DNA from: an uncultured Acidobacteriota bacterium
GTDB lineage: Bacteria; Acidobacteriota; Polarisedimenticolia; J045
DNA length: 54,522 nt
NCBI GenBank assembly: GCA_964582785.1
Contig: CAZOTT010000005.1
Location: 1 to 54,522 of the forward strand
Direction: 5' to 3'
The translations under genes and the position numbers were made by a program. The notes under the pieces are model-generated. The model was not told where the DNA came from. It saw nothing but the letters and a program-made list of their open reading frames with translations, and ran no database searches. Positions 1,185 through 14,230 of this stretch are shown here, piece after piece (the first letter of the stretch is position 1; each line of letters opens with the position of its first letter).

Positions 1185-1757
1185 GTGTTCCCCGTGAGGT
1201 ACCGGTTCGCGGTTGTCCTCCCGGTCGTCCTGGCCCTGGCCGGACCGCCCGCGTCCGCGGCGGTGGGGGGACGGGCGCGGGACCCGGTCGGGCCGCCCTA
1301 CCAGCGCCTGATCGAGCGGGTCGCGGCCCGTCACCGCCTGGACCCGGCCCTCCTGGCGGCCCTCGTGGAGGTGGAGTCGGGGCGGAACCCTGCCGCCCGG
1401 TCCCGCAAGGGGGCGCTCGGCCTCGCCCAGCTGATGCCCGAGACCGCCCGCCGGTTCGGCGCCCGGGACCCGCTGGACGCGGAGGAAAACCTGGAGGCGG
1501 CGGCCCGTTACCTGCGGGCCCTGGTGGAGCGCTACCGGGGCGACCTTCCCCTTGTCCTGGCGGCCTGGAACGCGGGGGAGGGGGCCGTCGAGAAGTTCGG
1601 GGGAGTTCCCCCCTACCTGGAGACGGTCACCTTCGTCCGGAAGGTGCTGGACCGCCTCGCGGCAACCAGGGGGCCGGGCCCGCGGCCGGCCGGGGGGCCG
1701 GGCCGGGTCCGGGTCGAGCGCGATCCCGCCCGGGGGATCGTGGTCACCAACCGCTGA
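1185..1757 (+). CDS. Secreted lytic transglycosylase (SLT domain)
   Basis: Signal peptide; motifs VES-G, SRKGALGLAQLMP, LAAWNAG, PPYLETVTFV. Confidence 0.9.
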   Translation: MFPVRYRFAVVLPVVLALAGPPASAAVGGRARDPVGPPYQRLIERVAARHRLDPALLAALVEVESGRNPAARSRKGALGLAQLMPETARRFGARDPLDAEENLEAAARYLRALVERYRGDLPLVLAAWNAGEGAVEKFGGVPPYLETVTFVRKVLDRLAATRGPGPRPAGGPGRVRVERDPARGIVVTNR

Positions 1758-1860: not shown

Positions 1861-1901
1861 GATCCGCCGAACCCCGCGAAAATCGCGGGGTTCCGGCGAT
1901 C
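1861..1901. terminator. Long near-perfect hairpin (possible terminator or operator)
   Basis: gatccgccgaaccccgcga-aaa-tcgcggggttccggcgatc inverted repeat; T-run at 1912-1918. Confidence 0.5.
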
Positions 1902-1919
1902 GGCCCGGGGATTTTTTTC

Positions 1920-2104: not shown

Positions 2105-2962
2105 ATGAGGAAGCTTGTCTACACCGCGTTCATTGCGGCGGTGGTCCTCTCGCTCGGCTGTGCCATCACGAACTACCCGGTGATCTTCGACACCGCCGGC
2201 CCGGACATGGACCAGGTGATGGATCACGGTTACGAGATGGCCTACATCAAGCCGGACGGCGACGTCGCCCTGCTTTACGACGACGGGTCCGACAACCTCT
2301 ACACCCTGGTCAGCCAGACGTGGGAAGGCGACCAGTGGCTGAAGACCTACAACAACTTCGACGCGTCCGGCGAGCTCAACTTCCTGGACCAGACCTACTG
2401 CGACCCCAACCGCCAGACCGACTGCGCGGTGTGGGTGGCCTGGAACCCGGATCTGCCCGATGCCTACCCGCACGGTGCCTCCGCTGGTTCCGGCAACGTC
2501 GTCGACGATCCGTTCGACGGTGAGTTCAACGAGGACTGCTCCGGTGCCCGCAGCCTCTCGCTGCTGGTCTCCATGACCTCCCGGGTCGGTGAGTGCGGCA
2601 GCGGCCTCTGGGCTGACAAGCAGGCTCTCGCGTTCGAGTTCGCCAACCTGGACACCGTCACCTTCCGTGGCCGCCAGGTCTACGAGCTCCCGGTCGACTC
2701 CTCCGTCGCCTCCTTCGAGGTGGTCGGTGAGGACGGCGCCTCCACCCAGGCCCCGATCTACGGCCGGTTCGTCGGTTACGTGGACAACCAGTTCCGCGTC
2801 GCCGTCCCGGTGACCCCGAACGCGAAGTACCAGCTCCGCTGGGCCAAGAACTGGGTCGAGAACCACGGCAACTTCGCCGAGATCAACCTGACCTACGGCT
2901 CGCTGAACGCGAACTTCAAGGTCAAGGTCACGACCTTCGACGGCGCCCTCGACCGGTTCTGA
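2105..2962 (+). CDS. Lipoprotein of unrecognised family, paralog 1 (285 aa)
   Basis: AAGGAG RBS; lipobox LSLG-C; motifs YCD, AWNP, DCSGARSLSLLV, GECG and TPNA shared with the two downstream genes. Confidence 0.9.
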   Translation: MRKLVYTAFIAAVVLSLGCAITNYPVIFDTAGPDMDQVMDHGYEMAYIKPDGDVALLYDDGSDNLYTLVSQTWEGDQWLKTYNNFDASGELNFLDQTYCDPNRQTDCAVWVAWNPDLPDAYPHGASAGSGNVVDDPFDGEFNEDCSGARSLSLLVSMTSRVGECGSGLWADKQALAFEFANLDTVTFRGRQVYELPVDSSVASFEVVGEDGASTQAPIYGRFVGYVDNQFRVAVPVTPNAKYQLRWAKNWVENHGNFAEINLTYGSLNANFKVKVTTFDGALDRF

Positions 2963-3025
2963 TCCAGCCCGAACTGGAAGCCTGAACTGCTCGCGAACTG
3001 AAGGACAAGAAAGGAGCGAGAACCC

Positions 3026-3823
3026 ATGAGGAAGCTGCTCTATGCCGCGTTCTGCCTGGCCCTGATCGCCTCGCTGGGCTGCGCGATCACCGATTACCCG
3101 ATCATCACCGACACCCGTGGGGACTACAGCGGCATCATCCGCACCGGCCACAAGGCCTACGTGACCGGCACCGCCCAGGTCGCCACGATCTACCCCGACG
3201 GCTCCGACGAGCTGTTCTCCATGGTGTGGCAGAACGCCTACGGCGATCAGCGCCTGTACACCTTCAACAACTTCGACCCGACCGCGACCGCGATCTTCAT
3301 GGACCAGACCTACTGCGACTGGCGGTATGACGGCTGCGAGGTCGTCCGCGCCTGGAATCCTCACCAGAACGACGAGCCGTTCGACTACGAGTTCTTCGAG
3401 GACTGCTCCGGCGCCCGCAGCCTCTCCCTCCTGGTCGCGCAGGGTTCCCGCCTCGGTGAGTGCGGCGACAGCCTCTTCCGGTCCGACCTCCAGGGTCTTG
3501 CCGGTGAGTTCGCCGACCTGGCCACCACCACCTGGCGGGGTGAGACTGCCTACGTGATCCCGGTCAACGCTTCCAACACCACCGTGGCCCTGAACGGCGT
3601 CGCGGTCCCGGTCTACGGCCAGTTCAACGGCTTCGTGACCGAGAAGCTCCAGGTCATGGTTCCCATGACCCCGAACGCCCGCCACGAGCTCAAGTGGCTG
3701 AGCCGCTGGATCGCCGAGAATGGCGACCTGGCCACCGTGACGATCAACTACGACAGCATCTCGGCCGACGTCAACGTGAAGTTCGCCGCCGAGGGCATCC
3801 ACTACAACGCCGATCGTCTCTGA
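3026..3823 (+). CDS. Lipoprotein of unrecognised family, paralog 2 (265 aa)
   Basis: AAGGAG RBS; lipobox ASLG-C; same conserved motifs. Confidence 0.9.
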   Translation: MRKLLYAAFCLALIASLGCAITDYPIITDTRGDYSGIIRTGHKAYVTGTAQVATIYPDGSDELFSMVWQNAYGDQRLYTFNNFDPTATAIFMDQTYCDWRYDGCEVVRAWNPHQNDEPFDYEFFEDCSGARSLSLLVAQGSRLGECGDSLFRSDLQGLAGEFADLATTTWRGETAYVIPVNASNTTVALNGVAVPVYGQFNGFVTEKLQVMVPMTPNARHELKWLSRWIAENGDLATVTINYDSISADVNVKFAAEGIHYNADRL

Positions 3824-3851
3824 TCCACGAACCTGCGCCTGATCTCGACGG

Positions 3852-3884
3852 GGGAGGCGGCCTGCGGGCCGCCTCCCTTTTTTT
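3852..3884 (+). terminator. Rho-independent terminator after paralog 2
   Basis: gggaggcggcc-tgcg-ggccgcctccc followed by T7. Confidence 0.9.
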
Positions 3885-3999
3885 ACCCTTGCGGGACGGC
3901 CGGAACGGCGTACGTTTCGCGCGAGGAGGCTCTCCGGGCCCGGGGATGGATGGTCACGACAGGAGAAAGCCGGGCGGAGAGGGAAAGGAGCCCAGAGAG

Positions 4000-4806
4000 A
4001 TGAAGAAGGTGCTCGGCATGCTGCTGGTGGCGGCGCTGGTTGCCACGGTCGGGGGCTGTGCCCTGACGGACTACCCGGTGATCACGGACGACCGGGGGGA
4101 CTACTCCGGCATCGTCCGGACCGGCCACAAGGCCTACATCACCCAGACGTCCCAGGTGGCGACGATCTGGCCCGACGGCTCGGACGAGCTGTTCTCCATG
4201 GTCTACCAGAACGCCTACGGGGACCAGAGGCTGTACACGTTCAACAACTACGATCCGACCGCCACCGCTCTGTTCCTCGACCAGAACTACGGCTACTGCG
4301 ACTGGAACTACGACGGGTGCGAGATCGTCCGGGCCTGGAACCCCCACCAGAACGACGACCCGCTGGACTACGAGTTCTTCGCGGACTGCTCGGGCGCCCG
4401 CAGCCTGTCGCTGCTCGTGGCCCAGCAGAACCGCCTCGGGGAATGCGGGGACGGTCTCTTCTCCGGGGACATGCAGGGGCTGGCCGGCGAGTTCGCCGAC
4501 CTGGCGACGACCTCCTGGCGGGGTGAGACCGCGTACGTGATCCCGGTGAACGCCGCGAACACCAGCGTCTCCCTCGACGGTGTTTCCGTCCCGCTCTACG
4601 GCCAGTTCAACGGGTTCGTCACGGACAGGCTCCAGGTGATGATCCCGATGACGCCCAACGCCCGGCACGAGCTGAAATGGCTTTCCCGCTGGATCGCGGA
4701 AAATGGCCCGGCTGCCACCGCGACGATCTCCTGGGGCAGCCTGTCCGCCGACGTGCGGGTTCGCTTCGCCGCCGAGGGGATCCACCACAACGCCGACCGG
4801 CTCTGA
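4000..4806 (+). CDS. Lipoprotein of unrecognised family, paralog 3 (268 aa)
   Basis: ATG at 4000 after AAGGAG; lipobox VGG-C; mature part about 80% identical to paralog 2 by manual comparison. Confidence 0.9.
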   Translation: MKKVLGMLLVAALVATVGGCALTDYPVITDDRGDYSGIVRTGHKAYITQTSQVATIWPDGSDELFSMVYQNAYGDQRLYTFNNYDPTATALFLDQNYGYCDWNYDGCEIVRAWNPHQNDDPLDYEFFADCSGARSLSLLVAQQNRLGECGDGLFSGDMQGLAGEFADLATTSWRGETAYVIPVNAANTSVSLDGVSVPLYGQFNGFVTDRLQVMIPMTPNARHELKWLSRWIAENGPAATATISWGSLSADVRVRFAAEGIHHNADRL

Positions 4807-4830: not shown

Positions 4831-4858
4831 CCGCGGGACGGCGGCCGCCGTCCCGCGG
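4831..4858. terminator. Perfect 28-nt palindrome between convergent genes (probable bidirectional terminator)
   Basis: ccgcgggacggcgg/ccgccgtcccgcgg. Confidence 0.6.
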
Positions 4859-4878: not shown

Positions 4879-6330
4879 TCAGGGGCCCCCGGCCAGCTCC
4901 CGGGCGCGCGCCACCGCGGCCGCGGGATCCACCAGCCCGTACCCGGACGCCGGGTCGGGTCCGGCGGGGGGAAGGTCCCGGGCCGTCTGCCGCAGCACCT
5001 CCATCACCTGGAGCGGGGTCAGGTCCGGGGCCACCTGGAAGACGAGGGCCGCGACCCCCCCCACCCAGCCGGTCGCGTGGGAGGTGCCCGAGGCCAGGCC
5101 GAGGGAGCGGGGGGTGGGGGGGGCCGGGACGGGGAGCCGGAAGCCGGGGGCGGCCAGGTCCGGGAAGACCCCGGGGCGCCCGCAGGGGGACGGTCCCCGG
5201 GAGGACGGATCGATGACCCGCAGGTGGCGGTCGATCGCGGCCACCGCCAGGGGGCCCCGCCCGGCCGGGAGCGGCAGGTCTGCCGGCGACTGGCAGCTTC
5301 CCGGGTCCGGGCCGTCGTTCCCGGCGGCGAAGACCGGCAGGACACCCGCCGCGAGGAACGCCTCGATCATCGGCAGGTCCCGGTCGTCGCACGAGCCCCT
5401 GCCGTGGCCCCAGGCGCCGAGGACCACGTCCACCCGCCGGGTTTCGAACAGCATCCAGTCCGCCGCCAGGGCCATGTTGACGTTGTTGTAGCTGTTGTAC
5501 CGGTTCGCCAGGGCCGCCACCCAGCGGGCTCCCGGCGCGGCTCCCAGGGCGTGTCCCCGGACCGGCCGCCCCAGGGCGCAGGCGAGAACTTCCGAGCCGT
5601 GGGGCACGGTGTCGAACGGCTCCGGGCGTCCCTCCACCGGGTCGAACCAGGAGGGCCCGTCGGCCCGGGCGTCCCGCAGCGCCTCGTGGTCTCCCATCAC
5701 CCCGCTGTCCAGGGAGCCGATGACCACGCCCCGGCCATCGATCCCCTGCTGCCAGAGGGCGGGAAGTCCCAGCGCCACGACGCCCCAGCTCGGCCCCGGC
5801 GGCACCGGCTCCGCCCGCCGGAGGAAGCTCCCGGCGGTGGACCGGCGGGCGTCCCGCACCGAGTCCACCTCGGGGACCAGGCGGGCGACCGCCGGGTCGG
5901 CGGCGAGTTCCCGCAGCGCCGGGAGCCTGGCGACCACGTGAACCCGGTTCATGTACCGGATCGGTTGCCACCAGTCCACGAGGCCGCGGCGCTCCAGGTC
6001 CTCGAGCAGGGGCCTGAGGTGCGCCACTCCGCGGGCGGACAGCGCGCGCAGTTCCCGCAGCGTGAACTCGCGGAAGGCCGCACGGGGGATCCCTCCCCGG
6101 GCCTCCAGGGCGAGGATCGGGGCCAGGTCCGGCTGCTCCCGGAGATCCACCAGCAGGCGCAGCCAGGCACGGCCATCGGGGCCCGCCAGTTCCCGGAAGC
6201 GGGGCGAGATCCCCGCCTGCCGGGGCAGGAGCCGGACGGGCAGCCGGTCCGGGAGGACCGGCCGGCGGGGAATCTCCGGGGTGCGGCAGGCGAGGAGGAG
6301 AACCAGCAGGGGCAGGATGCGGCGAACCAT
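4879..6330 (-). CDS. S8 (subtilisin-family) serine peptidase, probable lipoprotein with propeptide
   Basis: GGAGG RBS then [15 protein letters not shown]; triad motifs LDSG, HGSEV, GTSHA; oxyanion FAAGN; SSRGP. Confidence 0.88.
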
Positions 6331-6562: not shown

Positions 6563-13630
<7,068 letters not shown>

Positions 13631-13705: not shown

Positions 13706-14065
13706 TCAGCCGTTGCGGGGCCGGGCGGCCTCCCGCCGGGCCGACCGCATCCTGGTCCCCAGCTCCTGGGAGAGCCGGATCTCCTCGGCGGGGATGTCGG
13801 CGGGAAACAGGGTTCCGCTGATCCGGGCACGGTGGATCGAGGCCCCGTCGAGGAGGGCTTCCGACAGGTCCACGCCGCGCAGGTCCGCGTCCCGGAGGTA
13901 GGCGCCCCGGAGGTCCGCCCGGGAAAGGTCCGCCCGGCGCAGGTCGACCGCCCGGAGGTTCGCGTTCCGGAGGTCGGGCGTCTCCCGCTTCGCCATCTCG
14001 TTGAACTGCGCGAACTTTTCCTCCCGGAGCAGCCGGCAGTGGGGTTTCGTGGCGTCGAGGGGCAT
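13706..14065 (-). CDS. Pentapeptide-repeat protein
   Basis: ANLRAVDLRRADLSRADLRGAYLRDADLRG; AAGGAGG RBS before the ATG at 14065. Confidence 0.9.
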   Translation of the reverse strand: MPLDATKPHCRLLREEKFAQFNEMAKRETPDLRNANLRAVDLRRADLSRADLRGAYLRDADLRGVDLSEALLDGASIHRARISGTLFPADIPAEEIRLSQELGTRMRSARREAARPRNG

Positions 14066-14230
14066 GCTTGTCACCTCCTTCGAGTCTCATCGTCCGGACC
14101 CGACCGGACTTGAGCCGGGAGGGACAGAGACCGCGGCGGGAGCCACCCGTGGTTCGGATCCGGTCGTCCGGGCCCGCGCGGACCCGGGTGGCAGCGGATA
14201 TCCTTGGGGACCGGAGGAAGGAGGCGGACG

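Follow-up and report, generated by a model that had tools for sequence, protein, structure and literature searches.

Lineage-restricted lipoproteins of an Acidobacteriota class as possible partners of a surface subtilase

A stretch of 54,522 nucleotides from the genome of an uncultured Acidobacteriota bacterium (hereafter, the window) harbors three tandem genes, referred to here as A, B and C, encoding lipoproteins of a family that appears to have been undescribed until now. They lie tail to tail with a gene for a lipid-anchored S8 (subtilase) peptidase, which is in turn divergent from a gene encoding a giant secreted repeat protein. On the basis of the gene organization in related genomes, of the pairing of A-type and B-type genes and of complex prediction, it is tentatively proposed that an A/B lipoprotein heterodimer might anchor, or act as an adaptor for, the S8 protease and, where present, the giant adhesin-like protein, a reading that we consider possible rather than probable.

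Gene A (2105-2962, forward strand) encodes an A-type lipoprotein of 285 amino acids and gene B (3026-3823, forward strand) a B-type lipoprotein of 265 amino acids, both with the lipobox cysteine at position 19, as indicated for A by its open reading frame (ORF), ribosome-binding site, translation, alignment and clade-specific hidden Markov models (HMMs), and for B by its ORF, alignment, HMMs and AlphaFold2 model. Gene C (4000-4806, forward strand) is a second B-type copy of 268 amino acids, with the lipobox cysteine at position 20. The longest frame of gene C extends from a GTG at 3694; its real start is the ATG at 4000, since it has there its own AAAGGAG ribosome-binding site, the same that precedes the start codons of A and B. 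The signal peptides of the three products begin with MRKL and continue with a hydrophobic core and the lipobox LSLGC (A), ASLGC (B) or VGGC (C), directly followed, after the lipid cysteine, by AITNYPVIFD (A), AITDYPIITD (B) or ALTDYPVITD (C). Four further cysteines are invariant in the alignment of the three sequences (YCD...C, DCSGARSLSLLV and GECG), and it is proposed that they pair in two disulfides stabilizing the proteins; the product of gene B has one extra cysteine, which is embedded in the signal peptide. The motifs DGSD, T(Y/F)NN(F/Y)D, AWNP and TPNA and the DR(F/L)-stop ending are found in all three, and the product of gene A carries a 15-residue A-specific insert after AWNP. The degree of identity is 48% between A and B, 44% between A and C and 79% between B and C; a family HMM matches the three sequences with E values from 1e-104 to 1e-142, which excludes chance similarity, and exactly three family copies, i.e., A, B and C, are present in the genome. 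A preliminary description of this region had recognized three tandem paralogous lipoproteins sharing all these motifs and lacking any tether after the lipid cysteine, and the translation, the alignment and the model of B agree with it on each of these points.

The mature proteins have an isoelectric point (pI) of 4.2-4.4 and contain 12-13% aromatic residues (mean of the genome ORFs, 6.0 +/- 2.5), 6% lysine plus arginine (genome ORF mean, 13.4 +/- 3.0) and 5.6-6.7% asparagine (genome ORF mean, 1.5 +/- 0.9); the acidic and aromatic-rich character that had been noticed in comparison with the Arg-rich neighbours is therefore confirmed by composition. The GC content drops locally to 64%, versus 74%; the drop is confined to codon positions 1 and 2, and the GC content at the third codon position of A, B and C (0.90-0.92) is like that of the neighbouring genes and of the rest of the genome. 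A foreign origin of the three genes was consequently rejected, and the low local GC content is attributed to amino acid composition. In a set of 65 B-centred and 68 A-type sequences, the lipobox cysteine is invariant and the glycine preceding it is conserved in at least 90% of cases, and the sole weak NCBIfam match of A, B and C covers the signal region of a lipoprotein family. The three products are thus probably exported lipoproteins, lipidated at the invariant cysteine. In Escherichia coli, the sorting rule for lipoproteins reads the residue at position +2 after the lipid cysteine; by this rule, the alanine found at +2 would place A, B and C in the outer membrane.

No significant match for A, B or C was retrieved from Pfam, NCBIfam, PHROGs or PADLOC; at E <= 10, Pfam returned only DUF7244 (E value 0.19) and Lectin_C_term (E value 0.075), both far below the cut-offs, and no SLH or similar S-layer or anchoring domain. 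A profile built from 65 family members found no significant match among PDB sequences (best E value 0.48). The AlphaFold2 model of B, built from the family alignment (predicted local distance difference test (pLDDT) 83.3, predicted template modelling score (pTM) 0.53), consists of a beta-rich N-terminal half (approximately residues 19-147) and an alpha/beta C-terminal half; its first strand spans residues 19-23 and begins at the lipid cysteine itself, with no tether. The A model is less confident (pLDDT 67.2). Foldseek disclosed no match to the B model in PDB and BFVD at E <= 0.001. With VIA-align, the highest Z over 48,161 representative chains was 3.8 for the B model and 4.0 for the A model, and in a second look at 999 Foldseek candidate chains it was 3.4, to OspA, all these values being below the level that the tool describes as common background. 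The family has, in these searches with whole-chain models, no recognizable fold, and a new fold is possible. The view that it is an unrecognized one has thus been upheld: a match to a characterized family was sought in Pfam, NCBIfam, PDB and Foldseek, and A, B and C matched no curated family or solved structure that would make them solute-binding proteins or known enzymes. Full-text literature searches found no paper dealing with such proteins by its title or the start of its abstract.

A word-indexed search with B retrieved 243 relatives, whose source names, where given, are all "hypothetical protein" from Acidobacteria/Acidobacteriota metagenome bins, and a search with A retrieved 222 more at E <= 1e-20; an exhaustive profile search of 1.84 billion cluster representatives (clusters at 50% identity) yielded 120 at E <= 0.001. 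All the 46 loci obtained from species-representative genomes belong to Acidobacteriota bins. Of 401 sampled genomes of the phylum, 16 carried the family, all from the class of the window, and 0 of the 365 outside it did. Within this class, 40 of 119 genomes carry it (including G000, the genome of the window, and G244, which has only a 30-residue match) and 79 lack it. Besides G000, 21 of the 22 genomes of the taxonomic family of the window (f1) possess the lipoproteins, with 2-11 matches each; they are also present in 8/13 genomes of f2, in 6/16 of f4 and in single genomes of f7, f10, f14 and f102, and in none of the 29 genomes of f3. The taxonomic distribution and copy number, two checks suggested in the preliminary description, therefore point to one class of Acidobacteriota and to a multi-copy family in f1.

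The sequences are strongly conserved in f1. The degree of identity to the window is 57-69% for B-type and 53-66% for A-type orthologues, leaving out the congener L005 as well as L006, L016 and L040, where the A or B gene was not recovered. Among the neighbours, it is 47-59% for AlaRS (C-terminal part), 53-62% for the SLT protein, 52-60% for the S8 peptidase and 45-53% for the giant protein (initial part), the B-type lipoproteins being no less conserved than this part of AlaRS. In L005, the lipoproteins are 93-95% identical to those of the window versus 71-89% for the neighbouring genes. Judged from the sequences, such a constraint would be unusual for exposed lattice proteins, and would agree with either a high level of expression or numerous binding partners. 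In the family as a whole, with its distant relatives of 300-365 amino acids, conservation is highest in the segment lying right after the lipid cysteine; the lipobox and the Cys-AITDY segment are kept in each of the six distant relatives that were read (318-365 amino acids). Pfam recognized no domain in ten distant relatives, of which nine have 303-365 amino acids and one has 1,886, and no fused or longer relatives of 500-2000 amino acids were found, in a search that its tool rates as weak evidence. The 1,886-residue protein (P0239) consists of repeats with SGYSSP-type low-complexity linkers; its four matches are weak and concern the C-terminal portion of the family profile (E value 3.5e-4), and it is probably not a true relative. 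In L019, L041 and L043, some family copies are split into two to four frame-shifted pieces, which may be pseudogenes or result from assembly indels.

The gene order in the window is alaS, SLT, A, B, C, the convergent S8 gene, the divergent gene for the giant protein, a pentapeptide-repeat gene and PGI. The S8 peptidase gene (4879-6330, reverse strand), recognized by its start, its ribosome-binding site and its conserved position, encodes a protein of 483 amino acids (Pfam PF00082, E value 2e-29) with a pI of 8.9, a lipobox (LLLAC) and about 190 residues between the lipid cysteine and the catalytic domain. Lipobox-like N-termini were observed in 12 S8 orthologues of the 24 ORFs examined, the other 12 including truncated ORFs. 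The giant gene (6563-13630, forward strand) encodes a secreted protein of 2,355 amino acids containing FG-GAP and thrombospondin type 3 (TSP3) repeats according to Pfam, with a pI of 4.05, 18% aspartate and 60 cysteines. The NCBIfam model nearest to its repeats is the Myxococcus cell-cohesion protein MtsC (135 bits versus a cut-off of 350), and its C-terminal part of about 110 residues (ending ...ACP) is repeat-free, contains cysteines and has no Pfam or NCBIfam match.

The order alaS, SLT, lipoproteins and convergent S8 gene is found again in f1 loci as well as in distant families, three of whose loci have a GC content of about 70% (L056, L057 and L059) and one of 50% (L058). The lipoprotein genes are tail to tail with the S8 gene, and the latter is divergent from the giant gene, in f1, f2, f4, f7, f10 and f102; the positions obtained by genome search show matching order and orientation in G093, G468 and G469 (f4), G129 (f7), G284 and G163 (f2), G234 (f10) and G477 (f102). 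The co-occurrence of the three components was tabulated by hand over the 119 genomes of the class. An S8 orthologue (E <= 1e-40, one copy each) is present in 48 of them, and 38 of the 40 lipoprotein carriers possess it, the exceptions being two genomes that are 74-75% complete (G428 and G455). The giant protein (first 600 amino acids, E <= 1e-30) was found in 29/119 genomes, 28 of which carry both the lipoproteins and the S8 peptidase, whereas the remaining one (G304) gave a partial match. Genome G431 (99% complete) is the only one of the 22 f1 genomes other than G000 lacking the lipoproteins, and neither the S8 orthologue nor the giant protein was found in it at E <= 1e-20; at its corresponding locus (L062, C189:1-5300), alaS-SLT runs directly into PGI, and the whole block made of lipoprotein, S8, giant and pentapeptide genes is missing. 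Since the distributions are nested (S8 wider than the lipoproteins, and these wider than the giant protein) and the arrangement is fixed in six families, the genomic data argue for the idea that the lipoproteins, the S8 peptidase and the giant protein may form a functional module.

A maximum-likelihood tree of 71 full-length copies splits them into an A-type clade (29 sequences) and a B-type clade (42 sequences), with B and C as sister genes; the product of gene A scores 499 bits with the A-clade HMM and 280 with the B-clade HMM. Relatives belonging to other families of the class are matched to a similar extent by the two clade HMMs, and the A/B split seems to be specific to f1. The copies in the 46 loci and in the window were typed with these clade-specific HMMs, discarding hits below 150 bits. 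Among the 39 A genes, 23 are followed, after 17-87 bp, by a B gene, four by another A gene and seven by neither, the contig ending in five cases; conversely, the 49 B genes are preceded by A in 23 cases, by B in five, by neither in 13 and by a contig end in eight. The window and its congener share the order A-B-B, six loci have the order A-B-A-B (L009, L011, L012, L018, L020 and L021) and one A-B-A-B-A (L013); according to the tree, the A-B pair was jointly duplicated at least three times (in the group L009/L011/L012/L018/L021, in L020 and in L013). No terminator was detected by a terminator scan in the 63-bp gap between A and B of the window, and a strong terminator-like hairpin (13 pairs plus a T-run; 3850-3879, forward strand) follows gene B, so that A and B are probably co-transcribed and C probably belongs to a separate transcript. 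A GC-rich hairpin of 12 pairs (4831-4858, forward strand) lies downstream of gene C, within the 72 bp separating it from the convergent S8 gene, and a weaker terminator-like site (1891-1910, forward strand) lies between the SLT gene and gene A.

The complex fold of B (residues 20-265) with A (residues 20-285) gave an ipSAE score of 0.42 (0.42, 0.49 and 0.41 in the single runs) versus 0.00 in three controls, with a partner pLDDT of at least 64 and at least 58% of the contacts shared between runs; the mark so attained, reached by 58 of 80 solved complexes and by 2 of 110 mismatched pairs, corresponds to a tool verdict of "weak support". Gene pairing together with this score makes an A/B heteromer likely. 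The hetero-oligomer imagined in the preliminary description is therefore plausible in view of the A-B pairing, of the joint duplications and of the contrast with the controls, with weak support from the fold and with the prediction limited to a 1:1 pair.

According to the model proposed here, the working unit would most likely be the A-type/B-type heterodimer, which would sit flat against a membrane, since the fold starts at the lipid cysteine. The heterodimer might represent the non-catalytic anchoring or adaptor part of an envelope module, whose other parts would be the adjacent lipid-anchored S8 peptidase and, in the genomes that encode it, the giant adhesin-like protein with its Ca-binding FG-GAP/TSP3 repeats. 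If its N-terminal pro-region were removed, the subtilase would lose its own lipid anchor, and the mature enzyme would then depend on lipoprotein partners for remaining on the cell and encountering its large substrate; both the binding of A/B to the S8 peptidase or to the giant protein and the removal of the pro-region are inferred. [quoted passage not shown] As far as these excerpts describe PrcA and PrcB, A and B are like them in being two different, lineage-restricted lipoproteins located beside a lipoprotein S8 peptidase. The differences are several: the NCBIfam PrtP model matches only the S8 domain of the peptidase of the window (36.7 bits versus a cut-off of 300); no sequence relation was found, A, B and C matching no NCBIfam or Pfam family and PrcA and PrcB themselves being compared by description only; the lipoprotein genes of the window and of related loci are convergent with the S8 gene, unlike the prcB-prcA-prtP operon; A is a paralogue of B, and both occur in several copies; and the hosts are environmental Acidobacteriota rather than spirochaetes. 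The same paper (PMC8167434) mentions SphB1 as the subtilase that matures filamentous haemagglutinin. As in the SphB1/filamentous haemagglutinin system of Bordetella, the window combines a lipid-anchored S8 peptidase with a very large secreted adhesin-like protein; unlike filamentous haemagglutinin, the latter is made of FG-GAP/TSP3 repeats and not of a TpsA beta-helix. SphB1 is also a surface lipoprotein autotransporter and is not known to need separate lipoprotein partners.

Several observations weigh against this proposal. Ten genomes possess the S8 orthologue without the lipoproteins (as an example, in G264 the SLT gene abuts the S8 gene), which indicates that the protease does not need these lipoproteins, and twelve lipoprotein-positive genomes gave no giant-protein match at E <= 1e-30. 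The absence of all the components from G431 represents a single deletion event, and the co-occurrence as a whole is confounded by shared descent, most of the positive genomes belonging to f1 and f3 (0/29) lacking all three components. Being convergent with the lipoprotein genes, the S8 gene is not part of the same operon, and 2-11 lipoprotein genes correspond to one S8 gene. Moreover, extra solo or tandem copies are located away from the S8 gene in many genomes, 13 of the 49 B genes being preceded by neither A nor B, and six solo B-type copies (L023, L024, L028, L031, L041 and L043) adjoin the gene for a CPBP/Rce1-like membrane protease. As for the complex fold, scores up to 0.60 came from seven of the 80 solved complexes and from both false passes, and the A+B score falls in a range that is called more often wrong than right unless the interaction is likely beforehand.

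It might be argued that the lipoproteins work independently of their neighbours as abundant, self-assembling structural proteins of a surface lattice, of a filament or of an outer-membrane scaffold, as the preliminary description had supposed; we regard this as unlikely, even though a number of features agree with it. The acidic, aromatic- and Asn-rich, Arg/Lys-poor composition is typical of outer-membrane and extracellular proteins; the genomes contain 2-11 copies; the ribosome-binding sites of A, B and C are strong; the slow evolution fits high expression; and the support for an A/B heteromer is the same as for the adaptor proposal. The codon usage, scored against the ribosomal protein cluster, is ribosomal-protein-like for B (98.6th percentile) and A (88th), but the values for C (49th) and RecA (22nd) are lower, so that this signal for high expression is mixed and weak. 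Furthermore, lattice proteins do not usually show so many invariant polar residues or an identity of 57-69% within a taxonomic family, A, B and C are small (about 27 kDa) and would be pressed against the membrane, the absence from 79/119 genomes of the class indicates that the family is not a general envelope component, and the fold result covers only a 1:1 A+B pair.

More doubtful is the possibility that A and B inhibit or gate the S8 peptidase (or the CPBP protease at the solo loci), or that the proteases cut them near Cys-AITDYP, thus releasing them from the membrane. A protease gene adjoins the family in two unrelated contexts, i.e., the S8 gene at the core locus and the CPBP/Rce1-like gene at the six solo loci, where it is located directly downstream of the solo B copy (Pfam PF02517, E value 6.5e-10 in L024); in addition, the most conserved stretch of the family directly follows the lipid cysteine, and the lipoproteins are acidic, as opposed to the basic S8 peptidase. 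However, no likeness of A, B or C to known subtilase inhibitors was found in Pfam and NCBIfam, the AlphaFold model builds the segment close to the cysteine into the fold as a strand, and the adjacency to the membrane protease may be a coincidence. Eight of ten ORFs lying beside solo copies have no Pfam match, and many of them are probably shadow frames in high-GC DNA; of the links between solo copies and their neighbours, that to the CPBP protease alone was reproducible. The C-A-I-T sequence starting at the lipid cysteine looks like a CAAX box, and a tie between it and the CPBP/Rce1-like protease would be speculative.

It is improbable that the lipoproteins are carriers of the LolA/LprG type, that is, proteins with a hydrophobic cavity shuttling envelope lipids or acylated proteins, despite the fact that A, B and C are of similar size, beta-rich and secreted or lipidated like LolA and LppX-LprG, and that the nearest clusters in a language-model feature search are LppX_LprAFG, MucB_RseB/DUF1571, LolA and DUF2092 (0.92 for the whole protein and 0.86-0.89 for the mature part). 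The features shared with these clusters number 93-144, under the 170 typical of true family members, and mature-part scores below 0.9 are to be read as leads only. The N-terminal domain of B aligns weakly to the lipocalin-like ToxS/VtrC (Z 3.3-3.5), but no match to PF07161, PF03548 or PF03888 of the LolA-like clan was found in Pfam at E <= 10, and no LolA, LolB, LprG or RseB chain is among the 50 best of the 48,161 aligned or among the matches listed in the second look at 999 Foldseek candidates, the best Z to any chain being 3.8-4.0.

A bolder variant joins several of these elements and is, in our opinion, a long shot: the invariant segment lipid-Cys-A-I-T-D-Y-P would be a handle read by the neighbouring proteases, an A/B heterodimer of a new fold would serve as membrane dock for the giant, integrin/thrombospondin-like adhesin, and the adjacent subtilase (or, at solo loci, a CPBP/Rce1-type intramembrane protease) would release the dock or the adhesin by cleavage. 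If it were true, attachment and release would be under the control of proteases, by means of parts unique to one class of Acidobacteriota. Lastly, it is highly improbable that the lipoproteins have a peptidoglycan function coupled to the small secreted SLT-domain lytic transglycosylase (1185-1757, forward strand; Pfam PF01464, E value 2e-23), e.g., as inhibitor or scaffold. The SLT gene does immediately precede gene A in the window, both being on the forward strand, and it is directly upstream of the lipoproteins also in most f1 loci and in L057-L059, but alaS and SLT are adjacent in 5/5 examined genomes of the class without the family, which indicates that SLT is independent of the lipoproteins, and, moreover, the terminator-like site separates SLT from gene A and a gene named "X" intervenes between SLT and the lipoproteins in f2/f4 relatives.

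As for the remaining neighbours, the product of gene "X" is a polytopic membrane protein, encoded between SLT and the lipoprotein gene in L050, L054, L055, L056, L060 and L061 (f2/f4); its ORFs (497-611 codons, from stop to stop) have no Pfam or NCBIfam match, and by eye the protein resembles large membrane glycosyltransferase-like proteins. The small pentapeptide-repeat gene (13709-14086, reverse strand) is located between the giant gene and PGI and is absent also from the G431 junction. The alaS gene (3-1067 of the window) shows a frame shift near position 383, with four bases fewer than in the same-genus L005, due either to a mistake in the assembly or to a genuine frameshift of an essential gene.

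Acidobacteriota abound in soils, sediments and hot springs and, to our knowledge, their cell envelopes have hardly been studied. Lipoproteins confined to one lineage and serving as partners of a subtilase are of a kind already known, whereas the family itself appears to be new, and its context is now concrete, comprising A/B pairs, a lipid-anchored subtilase and a Ca-binding repeat protein of 2,355 residues. Were A, B and C to act alone, they would still represent a good target for structural studies, with a possible new fold. If the adaptor proposal is true, this would be a second, independently evolved case of the dentilisin principle, with a subtilase held at the cell surface by lipoproteins specific to a lineage, and the retention and processing of a giant adhesin by these bacteria would find an explanation.

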